A stretch of DNA of 64,000 nt from Spironucleus salmonicida. Lineage: Eukaryota. Made by a program: the position numbers and the translations under genes. Location: the NCBI RefSeq assembly GCF_000497125.1, contig NC_090596.1, positions 1,426,001 to 1,490,000 of the forward strand, given 5' to 3'. Positions 8,201 to 32,688 of this stretch are shown here, piece by piece (positions within the stretch are counted from its first letter, which is position 1; each line of letters starts with the position of its first letter). The notes beneath the pieces were generated by a model that was not told the DNA's origin, made no database searches, and saw only the letters and a list, made by a program, of their open reading frames with translations.

Positions 8201-9874
8201 ATGCCTCCTTGTCTTATTTGCTACGAAAACTGCAAATACATAGCATACACCGACTGCCAGCATTCTTGCTGCGTAAAATGTTACGAAATAGAGAATAATT
8301 TGTCAAAAAAGAATAAGTGTCTCATTTGTTCGTAGGTTAATCCTCAAGTCTGCCTGTGCCCAGCCCCACTACCGGTAGAAGACTTCACCAAGCTGAAACA
8401 CCTTAAAAATATTAAATTTGACTCTACACTTTCCGCCTTTATCCACAGCTCAGTGACTCCTTATCTAGCATCGCTAAGCCTACCAAAATGCCCGAAATGC
8501 GACTTCTAGCCAGCCTCGTAAGCCGAACTTCTAAATCATGTGACATAAACTCATAATCTCAGTTTCTGCAAAATATGCATCAAATTTAGACCTATGTTCC
8601 TAATTGACCAACCGTTGTTTGCGCGTCCCTAATTGGGGAAGCACATAGCCAGCCACCCGAAATGTATTCTATGTGGTGAGACTTTTTATGACAGCGAAGC
8701 ATTAAAATCACACTATCAAACTATCCACTACCGTTGCGACCTCTGCAGAAACTACTAGGTGGACGACTCTTACTGGGCTGGAATGCAGGATCTCGTAGAG
8801 CATATTAGCAGTGCGCACATCAGCTGCCCCTTCAAGTAGTGCTAACTTGAAGGGTTCGGGTTTGTGAGCGAAAAGCAGCAGATTGAGCACATATTAGAGG
8901 TGCACCAGGAGCAAATTGGTGCCAAAATTGACACTTATAAGCAAAAATTAAACAGCCTCAAGAAGCAGAAAAATATCGTAAATTTAGCAGATTTGGATGA
9001 ATTTAAGTAAAATTATTCAATTAATAACCGTAAACTTGATCGTACCCACAAAGTTAAGATCACAGAACAGCCTAGTGTTGTGAACGAACAGTTTGTGATT
9101 CAGTATTTTAACAACGTAAGAAAGGTGAAAAAAGTGCCCAGCAAGCAGCCTTAATACGAAGAATTCGTAGAGTAGAAATCACTCAACCAGCCGCACCAAA
9201 AACCGTTAAAAGCATAGACCCAAAAAGACGATTTACCGTTCTTTGCAGAGTCGAATTTCTTCCAAATCAAGCTCTAGAAGCAGTAAAAGAAGCAGAAATT
9301 GCAACTGATATAACAGAATCTGCAACAGTCTGAAAACATGTTTGATGAGATTCTGCAGTAGAAACCGCCGCGAAATTCCAGTAAGCCGGCAGCAAAACGA
9401 GCAGCACCTGAGAGCGCCAGAAACACACAATTCGACAACGTCGTCACGTGCTGCATCCTATTCGATTCTCGCGGACAGCCTTCCCAAATTGCGCTCTCGC
9501 GACTCGTTTCTGGCTCCGTCTCGGCGACGCTTTTCCTGGTTTTCAACGCAGATGACCCACTGAGTTTCGTGGTCCCGAGCGCTGCCGAATTCGGAAAATT
9601 CGGCTGCCTGCTCCGTAGCTTCTGCTACGCCAGCGCGGTCCAGCTCAGATGCCTGGGCGAGGTGAACGAGCGGATCCAAATGTGCGTTTCTGGTGTTTTC
9701 GGACGTGGCGAAGAAGTGAATTTCTACTGCATCAGCGAAGTAGCGGCATCAAAAGCTGCGATTTAGGACCTTTTTGGGTTCAAGTGTGTGGTGAGCGAGG
9801 AGCAGATAAGCACAATAGCGGGAAACGGCTTGTCTGCGCTAGAAATAGTCATCTAGAGTAATTCCAAAAAATGA
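8201..9874 (+). CDS. ZNF598/Hel2-like RING + C2H2 zinc-finger protein, paralog 1
   Basis: N-terminal RING CLIC...CQHSCCVKC...CLIC. Then CPKC..LLNHVTQTH, FCKIC, HPKCILCGETFYDSEALKSHYQTIHYRCDLC and HISSAHISCP, matching the ZNF598 finger array. Confidence 0.8.
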
Positions 9875-10700: not shown

Positions 10701-10799
10701 GTGTAGGTATAAAGTTCTTAATATAAAAATATTTTGATTTATTAATTTCTAGAACTATATAAATATGCCATATCTGATTTATTTAAATCATTATATTGC

Positions 10800-11700
10800 T
10801 CATTTGTCTTCTAATATTTCGCAGCTTTCAACGTCTTTCTATTAGAATTATACATTCGTATCAACTTCTCTAGTATAACACTCAATTTATACTATGTCCA
10901 GGAACTGCGCGTGCGCCTCGGCCCGGGTGGCGACGCTGCGGCCGCGGAGCCGCGCTGCCTGGAGGGCGAAGTAGTCCTCGCGGAAGGCGCAGTACTCCGC
11001 CACGTTGTCGTTGCCGGGTGCCTCCACCTCCATGCGGATGATGTCCAGCTCAGCGCCCTGCAGCGCCAGCCCGGGCAGCAGCACCTGCGCGTTGGTGGTG
11101 TAGAGCCTCACGCTCCCCGGGCGGTAGAAGGCGTCCAGCTGCGCCTGGGTGAGTGCCGCCTCGGTCGTCTCCGCGACGGCGCGCACCACCGGCACGAGCT
11201 GGCAGGGCTGCAGCTCGAAGGAGAGCAGGCGCACCTGGTCGGTTGCGAACGCCTGTGCGAGCTGCACCTGGTACGGCGGGAGGGTGGCGAGCCGCTGGCC
11301 CAGCAGGAACTTGGAGATGTACTGGTACAGGGACAGCTCCGGAAGCACCACCACATCCCGGAAGCCCAGACCGTCCAGGTATGGGTAGTCCGCGGGCCTG
11401 ACCAGGATGGTCTCGGCGACGGGGCAGGTGAGCCTCAGCTAAACGCAGCGGAGGAACACACTCTGCAAGAGCACTTAATTATAGTCACCTAATATTTAAG
11501 TTTATTCTTGATATAGGTTAATTATACCCGTATTGAGCAAACTAAATATAAAATCTTTAATCGGTTTAGAAGTAATTACCAATCTCATCCTTTATTAATG
11601 AAGAATCTAAGAGATTGATGTTCTTCATTGGAAACCTACATAAAGATAGGGATCTCTATAATAGACCTGATAAATAATAGTTAGTTCAATAAAGTTTTAT
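10800..11700 (-). pseudogene. Copy 1 of GC-core Arp-like family, disrupted 5' end
   Basis: 5' part DEIGNYFQTDQRF is homologous to copy 3 AEVGNYFVEEKGF but frameshifted relative to the core near 11545. Upstream TGA and no intact ATG. Has its own C-terminus (...FLDIVQIECYTREVD...EDK*). 5' boundary approximate. Confidence 0.7.
10894..11459 (-). repeat. GC-rich core repeat, copy 1 (566 bp)
   Basis: Near-identical to the GC-rich blocks at ~18.0-18.6 kb (inverted) and ~30.1-30.66 kb (direct). Confidence 0.95.
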
Positions 11701-11939
11701 ATAATTATTATTTTTCTTCTGACTACAATATATCAAAAATTGTTATAACGTTATAAATATAAAGCATAGATAAAGATTTATAAAAAGATATCATTAAATT
11801 TCTCTAAAATAAAATTTAGTAACCATTAACATGTATTATTAATGATAAATTTTGAAATACTCACGCTAGGACTTTCATTAAAAATAATATTATCTTTTAT
11901 TTCTTAATACCATAGATATTTAAAAAAAATATTTTTGTT

Positions 11940-14267
11940 TCACTCCACTTTGTAGCATAATTTAAACTATTCTCTGAGTTCCTTGCAATTCAGTTTTTTA
12001 ATTTCTGCAATTTTGAATAAAAACTCACAAATTGGTCCAGCTATGAAAAAGTCAAATCCAGAAGTTTATAGTTTGAAATCAACTTAAGTTGTCTCGATTT
12101 CTTAGCCACAAATTACACCCAATAAAACTTAACTAATGAAATATTTGAATGTAATACTAACATAAATAATATCTAATTTCATTAAATCTACTAGATAGCT
12201 TATAATTGGCTCTGATTTTACCGTAATTTCATTGAAACAGGTACGAATAATACAGGTAGTAAATGTTGCTAATAAGCCGAATTAGGTTCCAATATATTTT
12301 CCTACTTCTGGTACGAAAAGTTGACTAAAACTCTGACCGAATTCGCTTGAAAATTTACAAATATCATATTTTTGAAGGCTTTTAATAGGTTGTTTCGGTT
12401 TTTCTGCATTAAAAATGGGAATATTTACTTATTAAGTAAAAGTTTTATTTTCATAAAAATAAAGGCTGCTTTAACTCACAATTTCGTTATTTTAACTAAA
12501 AATTATAGTACCTGCATTTGGGCTGGTTCCCATTTCGTTGCCACAAACTCCTTCAAATAGTAAATTCGGTTTTTGTAGTTAATTTTTCGATGCAAAAATA
12601 AAGTTATAAGTAGATAGAATGGAATCTGAAAATATGCGAGAATAGGACAGCTAAAACGAAGATTTTGATTCTAACAATCTTGCTGCACCATAAGGGTTTG
12701 CTGCATTAATCAATGCATCAAAAGAATTATTGGCGATCTCATAACATTATTCTGATTTGTATAAACAGGCGCCGATAATCAATTATGGGAAATCGACTAT
12801 TGATTATTCATCAGTGTGGTTGATTAAATAAGTAGGCTTAAAAACTAACTGAGATAGTTTCTACGAATTGTTAAAAACTGATGTAAAAATTGTATCATAA
12901 ACATGTGGCGCGGACGTTAAATATAAATTGTGCGCTACTTGAATTTGTGCCAAATAATTTTGAGCTAATTTGTATTACGTTTCTTTATAAAATATCTAAT
13001 AAGCTACTTTTAAGCTAAATGCATTATGAGAATAATTTTCCTATAATTATTAGATTATTACCTCAATTTTATCTGCTTTATCTCTTAATAATTCTATTTT
13101 TCCAGTAGTTGAGTAATTAAGTAAAATTGCCGACTTCAAAAGTGAATCTACTTCTTAAAAATGATTATTTTATCTATCTAAAACTTCGATAATTTCCTCC
13201 ACAGTTAATATACTAAAAATTTTGGTAAATAAACAAATATCAATAGGTACAGTTATAGTGCTTTTAATGATAAAGTTGTATACTGCTTGCAACTATTCTA
13301 TAGAAGTAGAAGCACTTGTTATAATAGATAAGATATCAGATTATTATGGATTTTTTGTCAAGACAAAAGTAATAAATTTACCCCAAAAACTAATTTTGCT
13401 AATTAGTTTGACTGTCACTTCTTCATATGTCGCTGAAAAATTAATGATTGGGTCTACAAAGTCGATAAATCCAGTTTTATTAAATGCGACAATAAGATTT
13501 TCTAAAATAAGTTTTCTGTGTTCTTGTGGATTTTAAATAAAGCAAGTTAATAATAAATGCAGTCTAGGTGTCGTTTGTGCTATGCTTTTAGTCACAAACT
13601 CCTTATCGAACATTTCTTTAACAAATCTTACAATTTAACCAGGCTCGACTGATTTATTGCACAATATCATACCTAAAAACATGAAAATATTATTAAGAAT
13701 TTGAATCCCATGATCGCGATGAATCCGGTCGCCTATTTGCCCATTAATGTTCACGTTTTTCATGTCAGCATTTTAAATATTTTACCTCACCAAAAGCTCT
13801 ATAAATATCTTACTTTCGTTGAGAATAGCATCGATTTGAGCACTCTGGCGTTTACACATCTTTATAAAATTTTAGCTGAAACATATGCTTAAATTCTCCC
13901 TAATGGAAACCGCCTCATTTTTAGATTTAGTTTTATAACTATTTATAGATTTTTCGATAGGTTCAAGTTTTTGGCTGTCAAAATTTGCGAATTAAAGAGT
14001 TTAGTCAAAGTTGATTAGGTAAAGAAAATTGAGCTATGGAAGCGTCAAAATATCAAGTTGGGAAGATACTGTTTAAAGAGCGAACTTCTATGGGTCGATG
14101 CATTGGCGCGCATATGCGTACTGGCCAAGGTTAACATGCGCATATGCCTTTAGGGAGTTAAATTATGCTTTTTGACCTTCATTTTTAGCTGATAGAACTA
14201 ATTTTTCGATTAACATCAACGAATTTTCGTATTCCTTTGCGTCGAATGCTCTAAAGATTTTATCCAT
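11940..14267 (-). CDS. Large TPR/helical protein, possibly NatB auxiliary subunit NAA25/MDM20-like
   Basis: MDKIFRAFDAKEYENSLMLIEKLV...SLKAYAHVNLGQ...TLPQLNFLY resembles the NAA25 N-terminal TPR. 775 aa, ends GAG TGA. Family call tentative. Confidence 0.55.
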
Positions 14268-14339
14268 GAGATAAAAGAAGTGGTATGCCTTATACTTTAA
14301 TATCAATATAAAAATATATCTTAAGTTTCCATTTCTTTA

Positions 14340-15608
14340 ATGCCTCCCCCAGAACGCCTTGAGTCTGCTGATATTGACCCTTAAATATAACAAATACAAT
14401 AATTTATTAACGAAAATATAACTATTTATATGGTGAATTTTCCAGGAGCTGCCCTTGTAAATTTTCATATTCCCGAACTTGTAGCAGCACTTTAGTCTAC
14501 TAACTCATAAATTCTGTATCCTTATATATCCCCAATAGCATTTTTCACCACAACTGAACCTGACCTGAGAATAACCACCTTACTTTCCTCAATGTCCCTC
14601 ACCAAGCATTTTGGCAAAGTTTGCGCTATCTCAAATACACCTGAAGACTGTGTTTTGTAGTAAACAAAGTAAATTGTAGAATCTACCTATTACAAACAAG
14701 TAGAAGAACTAACCTTCAAGATGGTTGCGAACTTCATCGGAGATACTGACCAGGATATAGCGTAAAAAATTTAAATCCAAGAAGCTATTTACAATAAAGC
14801 GCAGTTTATGGCCCCAAAAGTCAACCTGAAAAGCTCAGATTTAAACTTCAACATCATCTACGACTACATCTCGGCGCCAACCAGATTTGTCTTCTCTATT
14901 TCGCGTAATGTGCCATTAAAACGAACGCAAATACAATCCAAGCTGGCACTCACCCGGAGGGCCTACCTGGGCCCCACCTCCATGGACGCCGAGCTCGCTG
15001 GCATCATGACGACGCTCGCAAACGTTAAAGCCGGTGATTTCGTCTGCGACCCCTTCTGTGGTACCTGCAGTATTTTGACCGCCTGTGCCAGTATAGGTGC
15101 AATCTGTATCGGAGGTGATTTCGACTACAAGGTCATCCGCGGTCGCAAGATGAAGAGCTACGTGGATAACTACCGGTAATACGGCTACAATCTGCCAGAA
15201 ATTTGCCAGCAGGATATTTTCCATCCCACCTTCAAGCCTGCCATTTTCGATGCCATCATTTGCGACCCACCGTACTGCATTCGTGCAACGGGTGGGAACG
15301 AGGCCATGAGCGATATCTATTTGGAGCTCATCAAATTCGCATCAAAAGGCCTTCAAATAGGCGGAAAACTCGTTTTTTGGATGCCAGTGCCGGTCGGGTT
15401 CGATCAGGGGAGGGAAATCTTCCTGGGTTGTGGATTCAAGTAAATTGGCGTATATCTATAGGAATTGACCCGAAAATACGGTAGAATTCTGGTCGAAATG
15501 GTCAAAACTGGAGATCTGGAATAGCATTTTGGGTTCAACGGTGTGTCGCATTTGGACTAACTGAGGGAACTCTTGGGTTTGAATAAGAGGAAGGTAGACG
15601 AGGTGTGA
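14340..15608 (+). CDS. TRM11: tRNA (guanine10-N2)-methyltransferase TRM11
   Basis: RAYLGPTSMDAELAGIM, DFVCDPFCGTCSIL, FDAIICDPPYCIRA. Confidence 0.9.
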
Positions 15609-16745
15609 CAGATTTATTTGTTGTATGAAGATTATAAATTATTTATTTAAGAGCACAATTTGGTTAAACCTTGCTAGAAATAATAGATATTGTAACTTAC
15701 ATTACTTAGGACTGATCTGATATTGAACCAAGTACTTATAGTAAGTAAAACAAGATTGCTTTTTTAATGTATAAAATAAGACTGTAGTATGATGTAAACA
15801 GTTTTCGTATAGATATTTTACTCTTGACCTAATTAATTGCAGTTAATGAAATTAATTTAATTTTTATAACATAAGGAAAAAGACAATTAACATTACTATA
15901 TTTACACGGAATAATATTTTTTTTCATATAAGTTGTCAGTCTTCTGAAAATAGTTAATTTTTTATAAAGTGATTACTGTTACTAAAATTAAAATATTTAA
16001 ATAAGATAATATAAATAAATGCTAACTTCTTGTTAATTAATCTGTATGTATATATTGTTCCTATTGATAAGATATCAAGCATATCATTACAGATTAAAAA
16101 TAAATTTTATTTTACAATATATAATATCTGAAAATTCTGATTTTTAAGATGTTGTATCAGATTAATTTATATATAAAAATACTACTACTACGCAATTACT
16201 AGTAGAGTATAGTTAAAGTAGATCATACTCATTGGTATTCTATTACTAGAATCTATATAATTTATTAATAATTTATATAAATAGGATTTCTAATCAGTAT
16301 CAACCATATAAGAGTAAATAATTCCTATATATACTATATCCTGTATAGTATTACGTAAAAAATAAGATGCAACGATTTTAAAGATATCTATAAATATTAA
16401 AATATTTCAAATTATAATAGTTCTTTAGTATTATATAAAAAATATTTTGAAACTAAAACGGATACGAATTCTAATAGTTTAAGCTACAATTAGTTAATAA
16501 ATATCAACTATAATCTTATTTAAGTAAATCTTATGTTAAATTAATATATTCCCAATAAAATATGCAGCTAAATGATACTAAAAGAATAAGTATTATAATT
16601 GAATTTTACAGATTTATTATTATTTGAATAAACCATTAGAATACTATTAACTAAACTTACATTATATTTCGGATGTCATCAGAAACTCTTAATAAGTATA
16701 TCCATAATATATAGTATATACTCAAGAATTATATTAAATTCTAAA

Positions 16746-17681
16746 ATGGGAAAGCAGAAGCCATCTTAGAAACCATATGAAGTGATGTTTATTGGAGTGG
16801 ATAATGCTGGAAAATCCACGATTATTAAATAAGCATGCGGTGATGAATCATTACTAGCATGTCATCCAACAATGGGCTGTGACTCTCGGATGTTTTGTCA
16901 CGAAATTGAGTCTAAGAAATGCAAACCAGTTTTTTAAAAGTTTTATCTAGTAGATTTAGGTGGACATAGCAGAATTAGAGATATCTGGTCCAGATATTAC
17001 CAAACATCAGTTGGTGTTGTTTTTGTTTTTGACGCAGCAGATGAGTCACGATTTAATGAGGTTCGAGAGACTTTTAACAATATCATAATGTAAAAAGAGT
17101 TAGAAAAAACTCCAATTTTAGTAATTGCTAATAAGTAAGACTTGGATGCCAAAATAAAAGATGAATTTGATTTTTTCAATACTTTTAAATTCAAATTAAA
17201 GGGAAAATACAAATTTGTTAGCGGAAGTGCAACTGATATTAATGATAAATCCATAAGAGCCGGTGTGCATTGGCTTTTTGATTAATGTATGGCAAATTCT
17301 TAGTTAATTTAGAATGCATAGAAAGCAGTAAAGGACCTTTAAAATGGAAATAAGTTTGCTGGTTTAACAGTAGAATAAAAGTTTGCATTGTAAGATCAAA
17401 TTGCTGCAAAAAATGACTAAATAGATATGGAAAAGAAGTTAGAGACTCAGAGATCAGAAGGTCTATTAGCAACATAATTGGATGTCACGCATTCAGGGAT
17501 TGAATTCCAAGAAGATCGTGTAAAAACACCTCATATTGGGGAAAAAAGTTATGTACAAACTCCAGATAAGTTAATTGGCCCTGACAGTAGTAGAGATAAC
17601 AAGATTAAGGACTTGGCTTCAAAAGTAGATGGTGAAACAAAACCTGTAAAAATTAAAAAATTATTACCAGGAGAGTTCTGA
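16746..17681 (+). CDS. ARL13B-like ciliary Arf-like GTPase
   Basis: GVDNAGKST; DLGGHSRIRDIW (no catalytic Gln, as in ARL13); ANKQD; C-terminal helical extension. Confidence 0.8.
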
Positions 17682-17759
17682 ACGAATAGGATTGTTATAA
17701 GAAATATTTATACTATATATTTATATTAAAGTATAATAATACAGTTACATAAATTGAGA

Positions 17760-18668
17760 ATGATTGTAATATATCATGATCAATAAATATCAATTCTAGA
17801 AAATGGATATTATAAGACTAATACCTCAGTATATAAATTTGTATTAAAATGTAAAGATTTAACCGAAGAATGTTTGTTATCTTCAGAAGTTTGAAATTAT
17901 TTCTAGGTTGATAGAACGTATCATGTATTAGATATTTTTGGTCCAGTCAATAATTAAATAAAAGTGTTATATAACTCTAAGTATATAGAAAACGATTATA
18001 CTTAGGAGTTCCTGCAGCGGGTGTTCCTCCGCTGCGTTTAGCTGAGGCTCACCTGCCCCGCCGCCGAGACCATCCTGGTCAGGCCCGCGGACTACCCATA
18101 CCTGGACGGTCTGGGCTTCCGGGATGTGGTGGTGCTTCCGGAGCTGTCCCTGTACCAGTACATCTCCAAGTTCCTGCTGGGCCAGCGGCTCGCCACCCTC
18201 CCGCCGTACCAGGTGCAGCTCGCACAGGCGTTCGCAACCGACCAGGTGCGCCTGCTCTCCTTCGAGCTGCAGCCCTGCCAGCTCGTGCCGGTGGTGCGCG
18301 CCGTCGCGGAGACGACCGAGGCGGCACTCACCCAGGCGCAGCTGGACGCCTTCTACCGCCCGGGGAGCGTGAGGCTCTACACCACCAACGCGCAGGTGCT
18401 GCTGCCCGGGCTGGCGCTGCAGGGCGCTGAGCTGGACATCATCCGCATGGAGGTGGAGGCACCCGGCAACGACAACGTGGCGGAGTACTGCGCCTTCCGC
18501 GAGGACTACTTCGCCCTCCAGGCAGCGCGGCTCCGCGGCCGCAGCGTCGCCACCCGGGCCGAGGCGCACGCGCAGTTCCTGGACATCATGCAGACCGCGG
18601 TAGTGTAGGTGGCGCAGGAGCCAGAGCGCGGGGAGGAGCAGTTCGGTGGCGAGAAGTCGGCGGAGTGA
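17760..18668 (+). pseudogene. Copy 2 of GC-core Arp-like family, in-frame TGA at 17892
   Basis: MIVIYHDQQISILENGYYK...LLSSEV*NYFQ...FGPVNN...TQEFLQRVFLRC, collinear with copy 3. The TGA sits at a position that is Gly in copies 1 and 3. Confidence 0.7.
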
Positions 18669-18773
18669 GACTAATCTACATTCCATATGGAATACATATC
18701 ATTCGAAATTCTTGACGAAAGAAGTGGTTTGGGCTTACCATTTTGGTCATATATTAGGCATAGTGGGCAAACA
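17995..18773 (+). repeat. GC-rich core repeat plus 3' flank, copy 2 (779 bp)
   Basis: Inverted repeat of 29908-30686; only two substitutions seen. Confidence 0.95.
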
Positions 18774-18777
18774 TAGA

Positions 18778-20994
18778 ATGGACAAGGAATAGGATCGACT
18801 TTGGATAGGATATGAAAAGCAGATAGGGCATGGAACATCTAGTAATCTAGACCAGTTTCTTTTAACTATTGAATATATGTAAGGTTATCAAGCATATGCT
18901 TTGTTGCTAACGCTTACAGACATAATTGCATTTTTTGTTAATCATTAGTTTCCTTCTGACTATGATCCAGGTAGTAATTCAATAACCACAGTATTTTTTA
19001 TATGCATTTCTATTAGTCATGCCTTACTACAAACGTTAGACCTTATTACAGTGGCTTCATTTGGTATTAAAAATTAGGTTTAATGGTTCAATATTTCATT
19101 TCTTCTTTATTTTTTCTCTGTATTTAGCTATTATGTTGTGGGAATATATTATTTTCTAACCGATATTTCTTATTATTAAGTCATAAAGCTGAGGTTGGGA
19201 TTTCTAACCATATTTCGTGGTTATGTAAGAGCCATATCAAGACGAAATAAAATGAGATTCAGTAAAGCTATTATAAAGTAATGTAAATAACATGCATTTG
19301 TACTGAATACAGTTTTTATCTTTAAATCTATAGCAGTTGTTATTTAATGTATATATGGTCCTATTTGTTTCCTTGTTGTTTGTATGGGTTTAATATTTTT
19401 ACTTAATATTTACTAATAAGATGCAAAAACTTTTGTTGATAGCCTTTATTTTATTGTTGTAACTATAGCAACGGTTGGTTATGGGGATGTAGTATTAGAA
19501 GGTTAGATAGGTAGATTAATGAATGTTTGCATAATTTTATTTGCTATAGGATATGCACCTTATGCAATTTCATATATAGTTAATCGACTACGTACAGAAT
19601 TTTCTAAATTATTTTTACAAAGAGCTATATTTGGAGGAGTAGTTGTGATAGGGAAAAAAGATATGGATACTTTTAAATGTTTACGGATTGTTCTACCACC
19701 AAATCAATCAATATAATTTCTAATATAAACTTCAGAAACTACATTAGAAGAAAATGAAGATGTTAGATTATTTGGTTAAATAAATTAGAAAGTAAATTAT
19801 CATTTTAAGGAATAATTTGATAGATAAGATTTAGCTTATTTAGCTGTAAATCAATCCATTTTAACAATTGTATTTTCAAAAGAAAATCCAGATAGTACAA
19901 TTGAAGAAGATGGATAAACTATATTCAATGCAGTTCAGCTGGCATAGGTTTTAGAAGAAGGTAATATTATGCTAATATTTTTACAACATAATTAATCAAT
20001 AGAAATATGCAGAGATACAATAAAACAGTATATTAAGCCTTAATAATTTTATATATACTCCATTGGTAAAGTAATGAGCCATTTGATTGCTGTTTCATCT
20101 TATTATAAAGGATTTTCTACTTTTTTCTACAATATGTTATTGCCTAACAGATGCTAGATTAATAAATAACCAATGAGGTAATTAAATTTAGTATAAAAAA
20201 GACTTGACAATCTGGTAAATCATTTACATTCTGACGAATATAATAAAAATAATGAAAAATTAGAGTTATTTGAATTTTATAATAAGTCTTGTGGAATTTC
20301 TTCAGAGTTAAAACATTATATTTTTAATGCAAAAAGGAATAACCAAAATAAATTAAAAGTTGAAACTCCTATATCACAATATTATAAAGGCGAAAAAGCG
20401 AAAATTCTTATTGTAGTGATAGGTAATATAAATCAGTGTCTATTTGACTAAACCATGGACAAATTCAATTTGGACGAGTTGGAAGTATATTTATTATTAC
20501 ATTAAGCTAATATACTGAAATTTGATTCTGCAATATCATACGATGGGGATATATTTAATCCTTAAACTTATAGAAAGGCAGACGCATCAGTATTAATTTT
20601 TATGGATGATAACAATGGCAGAGAAGTAATGTTGCAACATATTTTGGAATAAGCATAGGTTAATTACACATTTTGCTGTCAAGAGAGTATGTTAGAAATA
20701 TAGGATAAACTGAGGTTATATTAATCATAAAATTATATGCCTTTTGGTATGTCATCATTAATTTCGATTGCTGCAAAATAACCATTAGTTTTTTAAAAAG
20801 CATATTAATTTCTTAAAAGCTTTCAGTGTATGTAATATCAAATTTTAAGTTATAAAACTATTGAAATGTGGGAAGCAGTTCATTCACAAGAGTTTATAAT
20901 ATATATAATTCGAGATAATTGTGTAATTAATAGGTATGATAAATAATTTGATTTGTATAAAGGAGATACCATCACAGCAGTACGCACATAGTGA
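18778..20994 (+). CDS. Potassium channel, BK/Slo-like (6TM plus cytoplasmic RCK-like region)
   Basis: Multiple TM segments, S4-like KLRLGFLTIFRGYVR, pore SLYFIVVTIATVGYGDV, long C-terminal domain. Confidence 0.85.
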
Positions 20995-21316
20995 AATATT
21001 ATATAATATAATTAAATTAAAATATTTAGCAAACCACAACTAAGCTCAAGATAAAAATATATTTATATAAATTTTATATTAAAATCTTAAGGTATTCTTT
21101 TTGTGGATTACACCCTTTACTTATTCTTGAATTAGATTACAAAATATCTAAAATTATCTATAGACGCAGACTGTAATTAGGTCTTTAAAAAATGTTTATA
21201 TCTATATAGTTAGTATATATACTAATATGATGAGATTTTTTGTTTTTATACTCCCACTCTATTACATACTGGATTTTCCACTTCAAAATCCCACTCCAAT
21301 TTTTACCTTTCCCTTA

Positions 21317-22738
21317 ATGCTGGACGATCGAGCCTCACACTCGATTCTCTGGTGTCTTTAGCAAATGTTACCTTTGAACGAATTAGAGGGAATAACACGT
21401 ATAGAATCATCTAAACTTCAAGAAGCTCGCTAACTAGTTACAAAAGCTAATTTACAAGGAGAATTGGCAGATTAAAGATTAATTTTTGCATACAAATTGC
21501 TGTTATGGAACATAGATTCTATTATACAGATACCTAGTTAAGAAATGATGAAATCTTGTGGATTTTGTTCAAATTGGGTTAACATAGAAGGTTTTAATTC
21601 TAAAATTATTAACAGTTGTTAGTACATAGAATTTGTAGACTATTTTATTAATAATTTTCATATTATATTCCCACAAACTAAATTGGAACTACACAACTTG
21701 AAAAGTGTTTTAAAAAGTAGCGGAAAGTTCTATAAAGAGGTTTTGGATCGTCATGTTACGTTAGTTCTATTTTAGTTGTACCGAGAGAAACACTAGTCAT
21801 AATTTCTTATACATGATTTGAGCTCACGAATTAGTGAAAGCCTTATTCAGTTAAGTTATTCTAAATCACTTGATGATGTAAAAGAGAATTCTAATGATCT
21901 ATAGTAGCTACTTTTTGTAACAAAATAGTTTCTTGGTTTTATTAATAGAGCCAATGAAAGTAAAATAAATGTTGCTAGTATTGATTTTCAAGCTATAATA
22001 TAACTTTTACTTGAAAATATGTCAACAATTGTTTTATTTCCAGTAGAAAATTAACTATAGTAACACGATGAGATAGTCAATAGCTTTTTAACTATTACTG
22101 AAATGTTGATGGATATATTATATTCGGCCGCGTAAATGTAAAATTCATCATTTATGCCATGCTAAATGGAAAAAGATACTCCACAAGATTCGCAAATTAA
22201 TTACTTTTATTGCAGAAAGTCTGTCTTAGTATAAGTCCTTGATACATTTTCTGTTGTCATTTAATAATTTAAAGGAGATATCTATATACAAGATATCATC
22301 GTATTACTTTCTTCAAATTTTTAGGTGCTTGTCCATTAAATGTATTTAAGTCAATGGGCACACGTATCTAAATAGGACAAAGAAGTAGTAAAAGAGCTTT
22401 ATTGTGGATAATGCAAATTTATCCTCAAATTAGTTCAATAAAATAATTTAAATAATTATTTTATTATCATTTCATTCTTAGATCTTGCTTTATGTTTATT
22501 CTCATCTAAAGTAGTGTTCCTAGATAAGTTATTTATGGAAATTCTCATAAATATAATTATTTAGACAAAATAATCAGGCCTCATTTAGAAGTCTATTTCG
22601 ATTATAACTTTACTATTTAAATAGAAATGTGTAGTTTAGTATACACGCTCACATTTCAAATAATTTTAAGGTCAAATTAATTGCCCTTAGTCTGTTACAG
22701 ACATGATATGCGCAATCTAGTAGGTTGTGTTTATCTGA
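21317..22738 (+). CDS. Hypothetical helical-repeat protein
   Basis: Long open frame MLDDRASHSILWCLQQM...; alternative in-frame ATG at 21227. Confidence 0.65.
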
Positions 22739-22821
22739 TAACCTATATAAAAAAATGAATTTATTAATTTTATTAGCTTCTGTATATTTATTATTATATT
22801 TCCGCCCGCTTCATCCAAAAA

Positions 22822-23592
22822 ATGAAAAGAATATACTATAAAAAACCCATTGAAACGTTTGAAGTTGACACGGAGATTATACCTAAAACTCCAAAAAATC
22901 TTTTATATATACTACCTGATTCATCTTTATCTTTGTCATTAGACTTATATCGTGGAACACCATCTGATGTCCCATAAATTGCAGCATTTGAATTTATATT
23001 AAAAGATGTTAACTATTTTTTCGAAAAACCAGATGACTTATAAGTCCAATTAATTCATAAAAATAGACCTATAGCCTTTTAAACCCGGGATGTCTTCAAA
23101 GACAACGTATATTTGAAGACTTTCGCTATGGAGAAAATTGGAGTGGAAGAAGGTCCACAGAGATTAATTTTTGTGAGTGCATAGAATAATTATTAACTGA
23201 ACTAGGTAGTTTTCTAACTTTAGTACGCACGGTTTGATAAAATTGTTCTTTCAACATCCAGCAAAATTAGAATGGGAAAGAAAATTAATGTGTAAAAAGT
23301 AAAAAACGAGGCAGAAATTTACGGAATATCGCGATTTAGAGGTGGGGTAATCAAGTTCAATAGAGGTTTTACAGTTGATATTCTAAGTCCAAACCTAGAT
23401 CGGATTGTTGGTCAAGCCACATTTTTTGCCCGAAAATTCCAAATAGATGAATCTGTAGATCCATATTGCATGCATAAAGTCATGCCATGGAGTCCAGATC
23501 CGAGAATGACACTAGTTAGTGGACGACTTAGAGAAGCCCAGGTTTAGACATATGATTTTGTGGATGCGGACGGGGCAATTGTAGAGCTTTGA
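22822..23592 (+). CDS. Hypothetical protein (256 aa); N-terminal signal anchor possibly out of frame
   Basis: MKRIYYKKPIETFEVD...DADGAIVEL*. Confidence 0.65.
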
Positions 23593-23632
23593 GGAAAGTT
23601 CGTAAATTTTGCATCCAGCGAGATCGTAGAAA

Positions 23633-24310
23633 ATGGTACTGATTAATGATTGGATATTCTATGTTGCTATTATTAGCTATGTTTCAATATTGTATATTTT
23701 ACCTTGTTTTGTATACTATATTATTATAAGGAGAAATGAAAAATAGTTAATAAAGTTTCTCAGTTTTTTAGGTTTCCTCATCCTTTATATAATAACTAAT
23801 TATTAACATGGTGATATAAATTGTATAGTATTCTAAGCAATATAAGCTTAAATAATTATTATCGAACTCTGTTTATTTCTTCCTGCAAATACTGAGATAG
23901 AACATTTTAGTTTTACAATGGTTGTTAGTATAATGAGTATAAGTTTGAATATTCTGATTACAGGATATTCAAGAATAAAACGAGGATAATTCTCAGTAAC
24001 GGCTTTAGGATACTACACTGTTATAATAATAGCTATGTATGCGAGTTTACCATTTATTGAATACCATAACTACTAATTATAGTTTATTCATATGAATGGC
24101 TTCACTAAAATAAAATTATCTTTATAATTATTCCTTATGATACTTCGAATGTTAATACTTGTTTAGTTTAAACTATTTAACTGGAAAGATAAAAACGCAA
24201 AAAAATTTTTCGAAACTATACCTAAGGAAGCACCAGATTTTGAATAATTTGCCAACGATGATTAGATTGTGATTAGATATAATCAGGACCAAGCAAATTT
24301 TAGATCTTGA
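23633..24310 (+). CDS. Multi-pass transmembrane hypothetical protein
   Basis: MVLINDWIFYVAIISYVSILYILPCFVYYIII...; several hydrophobic segments. Confidence 0.6.
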
Positions 24311-24403
24311 TTTTATGAATCAAAAAATCATTTTAATTTTTAATCATTAATTTATATATTAATTTAATTTGCATTATAACTTTAAGTAAATTAATATTTA
24401 AAA

Positions 24404-24739
24404 ATGTCACTAAACTATGTTATTAAAAATTCTACCTAAAATGAAATAGTAAAGAACCTTAACTAGCTAGTGAGACAATTAAGTAATGAAAATTTGATTC
24501 GTTTCGATCGATCTAAATTTAACGACTTATTTTATTTTTTGTAACTTTTTTTCGAGGAAAAGTTCCACACCAAATTCACAATATCAGGCCCCTTTACTGA
24601 TAAAAAATTCATAAGAAATTTCACTAAGGAACTCAAGGCGGTCTCCAAATAACTCAACTTTAACACGTCTTGGGATGAGGAGAAAATAAACGAATACGAG
24701 GAGTCATTTCTATTGTTTCTAGAGGGAATCAACCAGTGA
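24404..24739 (+). CDS. Hypothetical protein (111 aa)
   Basis: MSLNYVIKNSTQNEIVKNLNQLVRQ...FLEGINQ; ends CAG TGA. Confidence 0.6.
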
Positions 24740-26425
24740 TCATTTTCTGCACCCACAACCATACTCAGTAACGTGATGTACTGGGTTAAACCTGTAAGTT
24801 TTCATGTCCTACCAACTGTCCTTCCGATCCTAATTTAGCAATGCTGACCGAAGCCGAATGTCCTCATCGTACGCATTCTATAGCATCTGCCTACCCTGCT
24901 ATTTGACCATATCATTTTTCTACTTTCCTATCAAATCCTGCCTCACACGCTCTTTCGCTTGCTCCCTTTGTACTACTCGCGACTACTGACACGAGGTCGC
25001 CCTCGCTGTCCTACTGAGCTACGCCTAATACTCATTAGCTTTCGATGCAATTTTGCAGTTACGATCGAACTATGAAATCACTTTTTCCTGTGATGCATGC
25101 TGAGCTACAGAGCCATTCTGACCGCATTTAGGAATCGGCAAAATTTATGATTTTTCGAGGTGCTCGTTCAGGAAATTACCCAATACACGCTACTATACTC
25201 TCTTAAAGCGCTCGTCTGTGATTTTCTCACGCGCAACCGACTCTTCCAAGTGCTTACGGTTGATATAGTCTTCCTAAAACTCCTGTTTCTGGTCAATTTT
25301 CATGTTTTTTTGCTCACAGTCATCCAGCTGCTCTTTTAGCAGCTGCTCAGCCCGTTTTCGCATTGTTTCACGCAATTATGGCTTGTCAGTTAACACTGCC
25401 ACGTTGTCTACGTACTTTTTTTCACCAAAACGCTTTGACTTGCATTTTTACGAAGCAACTTACTCGTTGTACTAGCGCACGAGCATCTGTTGCTCACGGT
25501 ATCTGTTTTAGTCAGAGCTCTCCCGCTGCTTGTACCAATAGAAGTCCTTCTCATGCTGCTGGTTGAAATCACACTGTTCGCTGCGTTTGCTATGCACTTT
25601 CTGATATGCTTTTTCCTTTATATCACGAGCATAAAAGCAACCATCGCACTCAGTTTTCGTAGCGACGAACTTACCACTTTCCATTAAACTCTGCTTATTA
25701 GCACTTAATGTTTGGTCTTTGAGAGACTGCAGGGAGCCGTTTCTGACAGAGGTGGCAATTTGGTCAAACTCAAAATCGCACTATCGGAGCTGCTAGAGTG
25801 TGTTGACATAGCATTTTTAGGGAGTATCAGTTATAGTAACTTCAAATTTTGGACATATTTTCTACATTTTGCTGGACTGTGTTTGGAGGTTCTAGCGATT
25901 GATCGTACAGCTAAGTGCGCGTTTTGGAGTGTTTTACGGCTAGTAATTGGTTGAAAAGTATTATTTTTCATATTTTGTGTTGAAGAGTTCTTCGTCTTTT
26001 TTGTGTTACAAATGTACTTGTTTTTCAAGTTTCTGTGTACCTTAAATATGGGCAGACTAAGCTCGCTATTGTTGAGATGTGTACTCAAAGCCGTATGTAT
26101 GAGAAGTTCTGTTGATCCAAAGCTTCCCGACAGTTCCAAATTTCAGTTCAATATTGAATTTTAACGATGCCTACTAAATCACTTAAAATACATTATTTGG
26201 CATTTATACCATTACCGTTTAAGATGATGGTAAACCTGAACGATTTGAAGAGTGGTTTTTTAGGAGTAAAAGTGTAAAATTCGGGGAATTGAAAATACCA
26301 AAGCCTGGAACTAGAACAGGGAATGATTTTAATGTTGATTATAGCTACTAAATGAATTTACTAAATATAGCCATCGGAATATGCTTTAAAGTGAAATCTT
26401 GCTGGAGCTAATTGTTAGTGTACAT
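24740..26425 (-). CDS. CCDC81-like protein (HU-like N-terminal domains + coiled coil), paralog A
   Basis: PVLVPGFGIF and NIELKFGTVGKLWIN are HU-CCDC81-like motifs. Coiled coil RKRAEQLLKEQL...EDYINRKHLEE is shared with the 27008 gene. Confidence 0.65.
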
Positions 26426-27007
26426 TTTATAAATTCAACGCGGATGAAATAATTAAACCATAATTATATAAGATATAGACTAAATAAATTTTCGTGCCTA
26501 AGACTATAGAGACTATAATGCTTAAAAAACATAGATTTTGTTAACTAATAGAGAGTTTCTAACTATTAAAATATAAATATTATACCACCCGTAAATTTGT
26601 GACATTAAAATAAATTAGTTATTGTTTACCTACTTATTATATTAGTTAATTTTGAATGTTTTAAACTCCCATGTAACATATATGTAACAATCTCTACTTA
26701 TTATAATAATATTTAACTATTCCTATAGTGCTAAAGCGCGATTTTTATTAGCAGTTACTCTATGTACTGTAAATAATAATAAAAACTTATTAGTTTTTAA
26801 CTTTAACCTTAATCAATTATTTTTACTTAATTACTTCAATGTATTGTAGTTCAGGTTTACTATCTTATATATATATTCTGCTAAATCTTTATAAATATAT
26901 GCGCGATTTTATTATGTTATTTACAATTATTAATACTTTTTTCAAAACAATGATATATCTATAAACATATATTACATCTATTTTATGACCGCCTCTTTCT
27001 CTCCAAA

Positions 27008-29068
27008 ATGTCCATTTATACAAATGAATAACTTTACACCTACATTTCTTCCTTAAAATATCTCAAGACAACGTATAATGACGTTAAAGAAATAATACGT
27101 CAAATCTCATAATAACTTATAGATTCACTAGCTACATCTTAACCTGTAGAATTACGTTATTTTGCAAAGTTTGGATTCAATAAAAACGGTCGCCCAAATG
27201 CTATTTGCACATAAGAATTTTTGAAATCTGGATACTAACGATTCAATACTGATCAGAACCTTGACAAAGACTAGATTTTCAAGTAGTTTTCGTTCTCTAA
27301 TATTGATAATGGTCGTACAATATTACCTTACATCTTTACAGAAATATCGAACCAGATACTATTTAGGTCTTAAAAAGTGCGTATTACCTTCCCATAATTT
27401 TGCGAATTCACATTCGATAAAAGAAGTAGGGCTTATACCTTCAATTTTGTTTAAAATAACGAATTCAAGGCTCCTGAGGCAATATAAAAACAAATAACCC
27501 GATCTAAATCTTGTTCATAAGCCAGCAAAGCCAGATCAGAAGTATCGCAACAGAGTAACAAAAAGTAGTAATAGTATTACTAAGAGCACAATAGCAGCTG
27601 TGCACCAATACCACAAAAACGGAACAAATAACTGTCTTCTTAACAGTCAACAGTCTCCAGGGCTAGCTCATGCAGCCAAGTTTCGAGAGTATCATCTGCA
27701 AAATCTACATATTAATCGCAGCACAAGCTGTCGCAGCTAACTCCATCTATGCCTTCACAGCTAACATCATCGCTCAAGATATAGTATACACAACCTCCAA
27801 AAGCATATGAGCGTACCGGAAGACTCGACTTCGACTGCGGAGACCTACAGGATTTCGATGAATTCGACATTGAAAAGTACAAGGATCTACCAGCAGTACC
27901 ATAGGATGTCTACAGATATAAGCCAGTGCTTTTTGAACGAGCAGTGGCTGAAAAGAGCAGGCACTAGTTGCTTCCCGGGGACCAGGCCTACGCTAGTGAG
28001 CTTAACTCAACTTTCTAACGAACTAGACAATTAGTAGACTAATCAAAAGCACGAAAGCACGAACTGGAACGATCTCGATCTATGCCCCGCCAGTAGTGCA
28101 GAAAGTGTCACTACGACGATGATACTATGAACAAAAAGCTAAAAAGTTAAAGGTAGAAAAAGTCTGATTAGGAGGAGTATCAAAACTGGGCTAACAATAC
28201 TAACGTATATCAGGTTCAGCGTGAAATAGAAAATGCCAATCACTACTATGAGGTACAGAAATAGTGCCACGACGAAAATTTACTTGACGCGACGTCCAAA
28301 TACGACTAGAAGCATAACTACTTTTTAACCGGCCGATACAACCCGGAAAATTACTTATAGGAGTAAAAGGCCGTGTTATGGAACGATGATAGCCTGCAAG
28401 CTAAGAAGCGTAAGAGTGCTGAGTAGACACTGTAAGAGCAGCTCATCGATAAGCAGAATAAGGACATCGAAAAACAGCGAATTCCTGAGAAGCAAGAGGA
28501 CTTTATCAACCGAAAACTACTCGAAGACGATGTAGCTCAGCAAAAAATAAGAGATCAAAAGTTCAAATTCACATAGTAGGAAACGCTGAAGAACTTCCTT
28601 GATACCCAATCTGCCGGAGGAAAGCTCTGTGATATTCAGTCGAAATACGATATGACGTGCTGCATGGATGACTCTTACAAACGGAACGCTCGCTACGACG
28701 AGGTTTTTGATGCTAATAACCATATCCGAGCCTTGGATAACAAGAATGCAGCAGAGTATAGGAAGCAAAAATTGGAACTCAACAGGAAGCGGAGCATGCT
28801 GGAAACTAGATGCAACGATCAGCATGCTTTAGAGCATTTATATGATGAGAATATTCGCAGTTTAGCCAAAAAGTTCGACGTAAGAGATGATTTGTAGGAA
28901 ACTTACAACAAGGATATCATTCAAAAGGCCAAAAAATAGCTTTACGAGAAGACTAGTTCCTGGTAAGATATGGACGAATTCAGGTTTTAAAATGAAAAAA
29001 TCGCCAATTTGTAGTGTGACTGCTGCAAGCAGGTTTACCGATACGATAATGTTTTTAATTAAGAGTGA
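27008..29068 (+). CDS. CCDC81-like protein, paralog B
   Basis: DVKEIIRQISQQLIDSLATSQPVELRYFAKFGF and KVRITFPQFCEFTF; coiled coil RKSAEQTLQEQL...EDFINRKLLED. Confidence 0.7.
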
Positions 29069-29096
29069 TATTATGTATTAATATTAGTATATAAAA

Positions 29097-29729
29097 ATGA
29101 GAGGTATTCCAGTAAGTTTAGTAAAGCCCAAACTTCCAAAGTATGTCAGTGCTAAACCAAAGTAGACATTTGAGTCAGATTACTAATCTTATTAGCAAAT
29201 AGTAGTTAGGTCGTGGTAAAACTAGCTGCATGAGTTACTTGAAAAAAAATCAAAATTTGATAAACCGGCAGAAAAGCAAATTTGCTGGCATTCCAATTAA
29301 TTTTTTAGCAATATAAAAGAAACCAATAGCTTTTAGCTGAAACGGACCTTTTATTACATTAATATTGCGGTTAATTGCTAAAAACCTTCTATCTAAGTTA
29401 TTATATAGCGCACTCATCGATTTTTGGTATTAAAACCTCCAATTAAGTAGGTATTTACCCCTTAAACTGACGTTCTGAGAAGTTTCGATTCGATTTTGTG
29501 TGCCTCAGCTGTTGAGAAAATACAGTCTATTTACATTGGGTTGTTAAAAGCAGATGCCACTTTTATGTAGTATATTTCTAGTCTTTATTAATATAACTAT
29601 TTAGTTGATCGAAACTAATTATATAATTTCCTTTCAAGTTTTAAATAGTCATACAACGTTCTAACAAAACATTTAGAAGAATGCATATTAGATATTAAAA
29701 TATATGAAAGATTAAAGCTTATTGTTTGA
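29097..29729 (+). CDS. Hypothetical protein (210 aa)
   Basis: MRGIPVSLVKPKLPKYVSAK..., open to TGA. Confidence 0.6.
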
Positions 29730-29907
29730 AATTGTATCCTGGAATACTTTTATAGACAATAAATCGTACAATTATTGCTTTGCTTGTAAATCTTAATATG
29801 ATACTGTGATATATTTATATTCACTATAAGTAAATATTATCTGATTAGAATAATTTATTAAAGTTTGTTCATACTTATAAACATACGCTAAGACTAATCA
29901 TTTTCTG

Positions 29908-30686
29908 TGTTTGCCCACTATGCCTAATATATGACCAAAATGGTAAGCCCAAACCACTTCTTTCGTCAAGAATTTCGAATGATATGTATTCCATATGGAA
30001 TGTAGATTAGTCTCACTCCGCCGACTTCTCGCCACCGAACTGCTCCTCCCCGCGCTCTGGCTCCTGCGCCACCTACACTACCGCGGTCTGCATGATGTCC
30101 AGGAACTGCGCGTGCGCCTCGGCCCGGGTGGCGACGCTGCGGCCGCGGAGCCGCGCTGCCTGGAGGGCGAAGTAGTCCTCGCGGAAGGCGCAGTACTCCG
30201 CCACGTTGTCGTTGCCGGGTGCCTCCACCTCCATGCGGATGATGTCCAGCTCAGCGCCCTGCAGCGCCAGCCCGGGCAGCAGCACCTGCGCGTTGGTGGT
30301 GTAGAGCCTCACGCTCCCCGGGCGGTAGAAGGCGTCCAGCTGCGCCTGGGTGAGTGCCGCCTCGGTCGTCTCCGCGACGGCGCGCACCACCGGCACGAGC
30401 TGGCAGGGCTGCAGCTCGAAGGAGAGCAGGCGCACCTGGTCGGTTGCGAACGCCTGTACGAGCTGCACCTGGTACGGCGGGAGGGTGGCGAGCCGCTGGC
30501 CCAGCAGGAACTTGGAGATGTACTGGTACAGGGACAGCTCCGGAAGCACCACCACATCCCGGAAGCCCAGACCGTCCAGGTATGGGTAGTCCGCGGGCCT
30601 GACCAGGATGGTCTCGGCGACGGGGCAGGTGAGCCTCAGCTAAACGCAGCGGAGGAACACCCGCTGCAGGAACTCCTAAGTATAAT
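29908..30686 (-). repeat. GC-rich core repeat plus 3' flank, copy 3 (779 bp)
   Basis: Reverse complement of 17995-18773; direct repeat of 10894-11459. Confidence 0.95.
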
Positions 30687-30921
30687 TACCTTAAATATAA
30701 TTGAATTTATGCATTAACTAAATACCAATTGCTACTGGACCAAAGATATATAGAATCTCAAAGCCTTTCTCTTCTACAAAGTAGTTACCAACTTCTGCAG
30801 CTAAAAGGTCTTCTTCAGAAAATCCACTACATTTTATTTCAAATTTATACAAGGATAACCTTTCTTTATAGTGACCTTAATCTAAAATAGAGATATTCTA
30901 ATTTGAATAAATTGCTATCAT
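30013..30921 (-). CDS. Copy 3 (intact) of GC-core family; putative highly divergent actin-related protein, 302 aa
   Basis: Uninterrupted MIAIYSNQNISILDQG...EKSAE*. The actin/Arp-like motif order was noted by eye only. Confidence 0.7.
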
Positions 30922-31131: not shown

Positions 31132-32627
31132 ATGACTATCTAGCCTACTTATGAAGAAAGTGCATGTATGTTATGCTTTAAGTTTAGAGGTAATATTTTA
31201 TTAACATCAGTAACTTAAGTTTTTAAACCTTCATCAACTTATTAAATTTTTGACTACTAGTATGCAGTGTATGAAGACCTTAAATATGGCTCGTATTAGG
31301 TACAATATTAGAATAAAGATATTTCTATTGATGTAGAAAATTTAGTTTATGGTATTGATTTCACATCAGATAAATTAAATGAGTATAAATATTCTATAGG
31401 CGATGACGTGGTTATTATAGAAGGTAATTCAACTTAAGAAGGACCATTTTTACCATGTAAGCATGATATTTATTTATAGTTTAACAATATTTTACCTCCT
31501 TAAAAGTTAGTTTCTGGATATATGAAACTTTATCCGAATTAAAATATTATTCAGCTCTTATCTGGTACTAGTTAATTAATTTCCACATTAAATCATATTA
31601 AATAATCATACTAATAAGATTATATTTTTCATTACAATAATGAGTAAATTGCTATTCAAGCATTTTGGTGGTGCCATGGCAAAATTATACCTAATTAACA
31701 TACTTCTTGTGTTAAGTCAGTTGAGATAAATCCTTCTGATAGAGAGTATAAGTCATAGGCTACATCATCTACTTTGTAGACTTATTTAAAAATTGGGCAT
31801 AGAGGCTGTGGTATGAACAAAGCTTTTGCATCTGGTCGCGTAAAAATTGCTGAAAATACGGTAGAATCTTTTAATAAAGCATATGAATTTGGTATGGATA
31901 TGATAGAAACTGATGTAATAATAACAAAGGATAAAATTCCAATTATCAATCATGATTTTAAAGTTTAGTACCATGGATTAAATTTAGCAATAATTCACTT
32001 ACTCTGGAATAGTTTAAAAAAATAAAAATTGACAAATCTAATATCGATTTATTTTAAGATACCATGATATCTTCAGACTATATGCCAACATTAGATGATG
32101 TTTTATAAAATATTAATTAACACTGTGGAATAAATATTGAGATCAAATATCCTTCAAAGCATTGCTAAAATATTGGTCTTTAATATTTTTCACGTATTGA
32201 AGTTATTAGAATTATATTTGAGTCAATTAAAAAGTATTAGTCTAGAAATATATACTTTTCTTCTTTTGACCCTTATATTTGTTCAATATTAGCAGCAGTT
32301 TAAAATACTTATCCTGTTTTATTTTTACATTATGGTACAACAATTTATGAAAAAGATGAAGAAATAAATATGTCTTTTATTGAAGTGCTAGATGCTCGAT
32401 TTGGTCTGATCAGAGCTCAATAAATAGGTGTTCAGGGAATGGTACTTAGTAAAGAAGTATAATGCTGGGATAAAGACTTTATTTCTAAAGTTAAAAAAGC
32501 TGGTTTGAAGGTGTTTACTTATGGTACTGAATATGATGATATAGAATTTGTTAAAGATTAGTAGTAGAAAGGGGTAGATGGCATCATTTTTGATCTTGTT
32601 AATCATGATGGTAACCAAGGATGTTGA
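31132..32627 (+). pseudogene. Glycerophosphodiester phosphodiesterase (GPCPD1/Gde1-like) with 1-nt frameshift near 31992
   Basis: IGHRGCG, ENTVESF, IETDVIITKDKIPIINHDF lie in one frame. SLTLEQFK, PTLDDVL, INIEIKYP, FSSFDP, GVDGIIFD lie in another. May be a sequencing error rather than a pseudogene. Confidence 0.75.
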
Positions 32628-32688
32628 GTAAACTTTTTATATTAACAGTATTATATAATAATTTAATATATATTTAAACCATTCCTTT

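Follow-up and report, generated by a model that had tools for sequence, protein, structure and literature searches.

A GC-rich tract shared by three gene copies of Spironucleus salmonicida: probable homogenisation by GC-biased interlocus conversion

The three copies and their shared tract

The window analysed here is a stretch of 64,000 nucleotides from Spironucleus salmonicida (assembly GCF_000497125.1, contig NC_090596.1 of 1.92 Mb, positions 1,426,001 to 1,490,000 of the forward strand). It is gene-dense, its GC content lies mostly at 22-35%, and it reads with genetic code 6. It includes three copies of an orphan gene that share a near-identical, GC-rich segment inside AT-rich, strongly diverged sequence (Table 1). 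Copies 1 and 3 lie on the minus strand and copy 2, between them, on the plus strand, so that copy 2 has the opposite orientation to each of the others. The inverted arms are separated by 6.5 kb (copies 1 and 2) and 11.1 kb (copies 2 and 3).

The segment comprises a three-way core and a longer tract restricted to copies 2 and 3. The core (566 bp) shows 1 difference between copies 1 and 2 and 1 between copies 1 and 3; the tract (779 bp) shows 2 differences between copies 2 and 3. The near-identity and the lengths given in the original prediction are exact. Copies 2 and 3 each carry one private base and the core of copy 1 carries none. Two private bases are unable to tell which pairs of copies convert directly. 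Beyond the tract, one further difference is followed by 4 matches, to 18778/29903. No homology is found in the flanks beyond this tract (score 29; shuffle mean 27, maximum 35) and no neighbouring gene is common to the copies; a larger segmental duplication is therefore not visible. In a self-comparison of the whole window by BLASTN, only these copies match, besides a tandem array at 1564-2363. No terminal repeat surrounding the core is found among the longest repeats listed, and positions 10000-32000 give no Rfam match.

Table 1. Features of the three-copy locus. Positions are those of the window. ORF, open reading frame; aa, amino acids; GC3s, GC content at synonymous third codon positions.
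Feature	Position	Strand	Characteristics
Copy 3	30013-30921	-	Only intact copy; 302-aa orphan protein (P0001); ends in AGTGA
AT-rich N-terminus of copy 3	30687-30921	-	78 codons; GC3s 0.20
Copy 3 arm of the 779-bp tract	29908-30686	-	Core 30095-30660; private base 30458
Shared non-coding tail after the copy 3 stop	29903-30012	-	Twin of 18669-18778
Copy 2	17760-18668	+	Colinear with copy 3; in-frame TGA at 17892-17894 (codon 45)
Copy 2 arm of the tract	17995-18773	+	Core 18021-18586; private base 18061
Shared non-coding tail of copy 2	18669-18778	+	35% GC; runs up to the start codon of a potassium-channel-like gene (18778-20994)
Copy 1	10800-11711	-	Decayed N-terminus: no homologous ATG, frameshifts, TGA
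Residual ORF of copy 1	11588-10800	-	262 aa (P0002); later ATG; longest ORF in the frame of the core; present in protein collections
Core of copy 1	10894-11459	-	566 bp; no private difference
Own C-terminus of copy 1	10800-10893	-	AT-rich; 30 codons; GC 0.29
Single-copy spacer, copies 1-2	11460-17994		Contains both broken N-termini, a Trm11-like gene and an Arf-like gene
Single-copy spacer, copies 2-3	18779-29902		From contigs and repeat listing

State of the copies

The homology between the N-termini of copies 2 and 3 stays in register as far as the junction. The two N-termini share 59% nucleotide and 46% amino acid identity, without insertion or deletion over 78 codons. The proportion of nonsynonymous differences (pN) is 0.32 and that of synonymous differences (pS) is 0.75. 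Identity is 0.60, 0.76 and 0.41 at the first, second and third codon positions. At the DNA level, the homology of the N-termini of copies 1 and 3 and of copies 2 and 3 exceeds the shuffle maximum; that of copies 1 and 2 does not (60.5 vs 89). The C-terminus of copy 1 can plausibly be aligned by eye with that of copies 2 and 3, and this alignment failed the shuffle tests (p 0.42 and 0.97). As judged from these sequences, copies 2 and 3 were probably once a working pair with different N-termini, a case of ordinary mosaic evolution.

Three variable N-termini, each in frame with the core, had been described in the original prediction. Their divergence stands. The continuity of the frame is complete in copy 3; it also holds in copy 2 but is interrupted by the TGA, for which no alternative letter is listed in two DNA runs. 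It does not hold in copy 1: the quoted EIGNYFQTDQRF does not share the frame of the core and meets a TGA, and the homologous start codon is absent. One N-terminus (copy 3) is intact and two (copies 1 and 2) are damaged, and both damaged copies have presumably lost their function. Copy 2 is probably a recent pseudogene: a TGA in an N-terminus that was long under purifying selection would indicate recent inactivation.

From within the shared tail, a 42-codon ORF (18687-18815, +) extends into the beginning of the channel gene, in a frame other than that of the channel. It may be an upstream ORF or a chance occurrence.

Protein product

Neither P0001 nor P0002 has a Pfam family. P0001 has no NCBIfam family, and three other queries gave only two rows, both below the cut-off. 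A comparison of P0001 with PDB sequences gave one match, with an E value of 0.44. Word-based searches and phmmer over 1.84 billion representatives returned only the ORF of copy 1 and no ortholog. The AlphaFold model has a pLDDT (predicted local distance difference test) of 39.7, and only its residues 25-93 are moderately confident. The ESM Atlas gave no usable match (model pLDDT 0.31), Foldseek gave no match at E <= 0.001, and the best Z score of VIA-align was 4.5. The absence of family, homolog and fold matches does not establish a new fold.

Base composition and the edges of the tract

The core has a GC content of 0.70, a GC3s of 0.94 (176/187) and a GC content at fourfold-degenerate sites of 0.91 (106/116), against a GC content of 0.23-0.28 and a GC3s of 0.16-0.20 in the N-termini. 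A core with about 70% GC and near-total GC at third codon positions (GC3), as well as an abrupt switch within the reading frame, had been claimed; both are found. The 5′ GC step lies inside the reading frame, close to the edge of identity. The odds ratio of fourfold-site GC over background is about 43. The comparison set consists of 37 hand-picked window ORFs (GC3s median 0.23, maximum 0.66); 2 of its 37 rows were mis-entered (1 on the wrong strand, 1 out of frame), and the median barely moved. Core residues are also shifted: GARP, 0.31 vs 0.14 in the background; FYMINK, 0.14 vs 0.35. Part of this shift could reflect the domain itself.

The 5′ GC change points (11474, 18005 and 30676) are within 15 bp of the identity edges. 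With offsets of -83, -84 and -84, they correspond to one homologous position throughout the three copies. The 3′ change point of copy 1 (10895) is on the identity edge. The distance between GC change point and identity edge therefore does not exceed 15 bp at 4 of the 6 junctions.

TAG is still used as a glutamine codon in the core, as first stated, but is nearly gone: the three-way core contains 1 TAG and 14 CAG. The whole tract contains 3 TAG, all 40 codons or less from an edge. Of the 8 glutamine codons near the edges, 3 are TAR (TAA or TAG); of the 13 in the centre, none is (p 0.04, uncorrected, in a set of four tests of this kind). Codons ending in A or T do not differ significantly between edge and centre (9/80 vs 8/144, p 0.19). 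Neither GC3s (p 0.39) nor fourfold-site GC (0.91 vs 0.77, p 0.13) differs significantly between the three-copy and the two-copy part.

Evidence from sequencing runs

Four of the eight listed runs were covered, as contigs over the interval 10790-30789. X1 and X2 are DNA runs of one sample. Two further runs, from a second study, are guessed to be RNA; their contigs follow ORF limits, and no run is recorded as RNA. In contigs, rare variants are lost and the flanks cannot be phased across the core.

In both DNA runs, the flank records end 30 letters inside the repeat at all six junctions, which corresponds to a fork in the 31-mer graph. The depths of X2 are 33.9 for the core (one 566-bp record), 23.9 and 24.6 for the two-copy parts and 11.6-12.1 for the long flanks; they read as three, two and one copies. 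The contig of X1 breaks at the private base of copy 3 (11256/11258). Four DNA runs contain 96-98% of the words sampled from the region of copy 3. Recombinant joints or alternative letters: none is listed in these contigs, within the limits of such data given above.

Each RNA-like run has one record that links the N-terminus of copy 3 to the core. The X5 record matches copy 3 over 631 letters with zero differences, private base included. Copy 3 is probably transcribed. Among the rows listed, the RNA-like runs have no cover in the bin 10790-11456, and their depth in the bin with the copy 2 N-terminus is about what the contig of the Arf-like gene alone would give; with one study and contigs only, neither is evidence of silence. 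One base is missing in X2 and present in X1 at each of two positions of the spacers, 15917 and 28347.

GC-biased interlocus conversion

The most satisfactory reading is that the copies are old paralogs that form two inverted pairs with copy 2 in common, and that repeated GC-biased interlocus conversion has homogenised them and has also shifted the composition of the live protein. Repeated GC-biased ectopic conversion had already been proposed in the original prediction, and it is considered probable here, given old N-termini next to a near-identical tract, the GC steps and the read forks. The tract differs by 0.18-0.26% between copies, vs a pS of 0.75 in the N-termini. Allelic heterozygosity is 0.09-0.15% in this species (PMC9509377). 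The divergence of the tract is near this value; the copies are thus nearly as alike as alleles.

The proposed course of events is as follows. An old triplication would have given copies in the order minus, plus, minus, in which copy 2 forms an inverted pair with each neighbour. The N-termini would have drifted past the reach of recombination long ago. The middle part would have remained similar enough to keep pairing, and would have been repeatedly overwritten between copies by intrachromosomal exchange between inverted arms. New mismatches would have been repaired more often to G or C, until the tract reached near-total GC3. In the process, nearly every TAR glutamine codon of the tract would have disappeared and amino acids with GC-rich codons would have accumulated, the flanks keeping their AT-rich composition. 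Damage would have struck the unconverted N-termini, first in copy 1 and afterwards in copy 2; continued correction against copy 3 would keep the cores of both open. What sequence and reads show directly is the mosaic identity, the GC step, the forks and a transcript contig of copy 3; repeated conversion, its direction and bias, a role of inverted pairing and the loss of function in two copies are inferred.

The strength of the bias was estimated with a model in which fixation odds are r^(n-1), and which assumes exchange among all alleles, including between nuclei. If every copy in a tetraploid cell, which has two diploid nuclei, takes part in mutual correction, the model requires a repair bias of 0.62-0.72. 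This is near the GC repair bias of 67% and 70% reported for primates (10.1101/135152, PMC8981503). A small simulation gave ratios of 4.0, 28 and 160, vs 4.3, 31 and 218 in theory.

Several points weigh against this reading. The main one concerns the 3′ side of copies 2 and 3, where the GC step is located at the stop codon (18664, range 18662-18674), 105-110 bp before the identity edge. The shared tail (39/110 GC) is above the non-genic background of the window (0.235, p 0.005) and far below the core. This AT-rich tail requires an extra assumption: it may be a recent extension of the tract, or it may be constrained as a 3′ untranslated region and promoter. The required repair bias is 0.98 or 0.87 with two or three haploid copies. 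As to the direction of change, the homology searches gave no ortholog, and the C-terminal alignment is not significant. In the 26-bp strip at the 5′ edge, apparent changes from AT to GC and the reverse are only 5 vs 2. The sample of X1 and X2 may be the one from which the assembly was made. In X1, the core records (286, 276 and a short piece at 37) reach only about 1.5 times the depth of the flanks (170-194), not 3 times, possibly through GC drop-out. Lastly, GC enrichment is found here without a present twin: the Trm11-like gene (14340-15608, +) lies in a single unbroken contig, and its GC3 passes from 0.18 to 0.79 in one 40-codon block, then to near 0.6. This gene may be a fading former tract or may have another cause.

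An extension of the conversion reading is offered tentatively and is rather less likely to hold than to fail. A modest repair bias would be amplified exponentially, as r^(n-1), by the number of mutually correcting copies in a cell with two nuclei and four genome sets. Any surviving duplicate, even a dead one, would then drive its partner to near-total GC3, strip its TAR codons and rewrite its amino acids. If this were true, the amplification might be enough to make the gene an orphan, and it would explain the genes with GC3 near 1 that were left unexplained in 2007 and 2010. The GC content of tracts would rise with copy number genome-wide; the fourfold-site values of the two parts given above are in the right direction and not significantly different.

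Alternative explanations

The core of one copy may already have been GC-rich, by regional mutation bias or coding selection, and one or a few recent unbiased conversions may have spread it. Such a history is improbable, although it survives better than the others. The 3′ GC step at the stop codon and the AT-rich, non-coding tail agree with it, as do the GC-rich genes of the window that have no present twin, and 1-2 differences are equally compatible with one recent sweep and with a steady state. Under this history, the high GC content as such is left without an explanation. A 5′ step that lies within the reading frame, 15 bp or less from the identity edge and placed alike in the three copies, would not be expected, and the highly expressed genes of the species centre on a GC3s near 0.4, not 0.9 (PMC1805757).

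A constant core with variable ends suggested a cassette or inversion system in the original prediction. The core would be a recombination handle that swaps variable ends and diversifies the expressed protein. Two interlocked inverted pairs could indeed flip the 6.5-kb and 11.1-kb spacers, the N-terminus of copy 2 was long under purifying selection, and short-read contigs are unable to phase across the core. The geometry nevertheless speaks against it. Neither protein is altered by an inversion between copies 2 and 3, and an inversion between copies 1 and 2 exchanges two broken N-termini. The N-terminus of copy 3 meets the C-terminus of copy 1 only through a deletion of about 19 kb between direct repeats, with the loss of several genes. 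From geometry and frames, no inversion alters the ends of the intact copy. Inversion cannot give the N-terminus of copy 3 a new C-terminus, and the cassette reading therefore fails. In known cassette systems, the variable sequence is stored in silent copies, from which an expressed locus receives it; here it is the constant part that the silent copies contain, which is the reverse. The exchangeable part is the invariant part (1-2 differences), and transcript contigs carry the N-terminus and the private base of copy 3. By inspection of its sequence, the protein has neither CXXC repeats nor a C-terminal membrane anchor, and none of the 14 window proteins scanned against Pfam is a recombinase. 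This system, as first described, is abandoned as very unlikely.

A GC-rich master copy located elsewhere, or a foreign or mobile GC-rich element, could have donated the core to the three places. The composition of the core looks foreign, and the search for copies was made in the window, not in the whole genome. A donor is nevertheless about as improbable as a cassette. X2 depth indicates about three copies; with forks at all six junctions, this makes both a hidden fourth donor and a collapse unlikely. Among the loose ends listed (20 of 30), none is a genomic continuation from the core. Upstream of the core, the flanks are homologous and in register, where a mobile insert would be expected at unrelated sites; the core replaces homologous sequence and no terminal repeats are seen. 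The protein searches over 1.84 billion representatives gave no relative except the ORF of copy 1, although absence from such collections proves nothing, and an in-frame TAG remains.

Least likely of all is an assembly collapse or polishing artefact, which the original prediction had named as fatal to its claim: the DNA runs may be of the assembly's own sample, their flank records stop one letter below the bridging bar and none spans the core with both flanks, but the short-read graph forks at six junctions in both runs, X1 breaks at the private base of copy 3, words of copy 3 are almost all present in four DNA runs, and RNA-like contigs of a second study bridge its 5′ junction.

Comparison with known systems

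GC-biased conversion is a known process, of which this locus is most likely a strong three-copy example, with an unusually strong effect. It is not a gene-switching device. The closest gene-level counterparts are BMP8A/B, DDX19A/B and TUBG1/2, which show mosaic concerted evolution (PMC2720389): they are likewise old paralogs, homogenised beside diverged segments and with a raised GC3 where homogenised. The present locus differs from these mammalian pairs in that it has three copies, tract edges that fall within an intronless reading frame, damage in two of the partners and a GC3s that passes from about 0.2 to 0.94. Pseudogenes are known to take part in conversion (PMC3924837).

The palindromes of the primate X chromosome (PMC8981503) and human non-allelic conversion (10.1101/135152) likewise involve inverted arms that are more than 99% identical and have a GC content above that of their flanks. 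Unlike in the primate cases, the arms are here shorter than 1 kb. The effect is far larger: fourfold-site GC is 0.91 vs 0.20, against an equilibrium GC of 61% vs 40% in primates.

Among diplomonads, Giardia has vsp gene pairs (PMC2996952) in which identical genes are found only as inverted pairs, and identity enters the flanks and ends abruptly. Those pairs are whole ORFs of surface antigens, 2-4 kb apart; here the identity concerns part of an orphan gene that does not encode a variant-specific surface protein. The term 'gene conversion' has 0 occurrences in the available main text of that paper.

In Spironucleus salmonicida, GC islands with sharp limits and a GC content near 70% have been reported without an explanation, as have genes whose GC3s approaches 1 (PMC1805757, PMC2874811). 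Duplicated regions have 44.7% GC vs 30.7% elsewhere (PMC9509377, 2022). In its available parts, that study invokes gene conversion only for the expansion of surface proteins, and its 2-kb cut-off would miss the 779-bp tract. Neither GC steps mapped to tract edges nor biased conversion as their cause is found in the available parts of PMC1805757, PMC2874811 and PMC9509377. A search for Spironucleus with biased gene conversion, subscription journals and supplements lying outside its scope, found no publication. The three copies, the damaged partners and the read support are new here.

The locus ties one GC island to a probable conversion tract, at near-base resolution and with read support. With its three-copy part nested in a two-copy part, any dependence of the bias on copy number can be tested directly here. 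The locus also suggests that a working gene can go on being reshaped, in a non-adaptive way, by its damaged paralogs. GC-rich, foreign-looking segments of this kind can be mistaken for lateral transfer or for cassette systems.

Other features of the window

AGTGA, the ending of copy 3, is a stop/polyadenylation motif described for the species (PMC3916229). It ends 10 of the 37 hand-picked window ORFs.

Four genes without a twin in the window have a GC3s of 0.52-0.66: 3265-4002 (-), 43335-43937 (-), 58617-60383 (-) and 8201-9874 (+). One is of the ThiF family, one is a RING-finger gene and two are of unknown type. The RING gene 8201-9874 has a paralog at 32521-35295 (+) (36% over 352 aa; GC3s 0.52 vs 0.19), and the two bracket the three copies. 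Both are taken here to be ZNF598/Hel2-like.

Two old divergent paralogs, 24740-26425 (-) and 27008-29068 (+), lie inside the spacer between copies 2 and 3 (29% over 359 aa; both with a GC3s of about 0.43). The product of 27008-29068 has a weak HU-like match, below the cut-off, at its N-terminus. A glycerophosphodiester phosphodiesterase-like gene (31132-32627, +) is apparently split into the overlapping ORFs 31132-32067 and 32064-32627. The tandem array 1564-2363 (+) has a 30-bp period and encodes EPQMEVEPVA-like repeats. Its GC3 is about 0.5, vs about 0.2 upstream in the same gene; repeats and GC are again linked.

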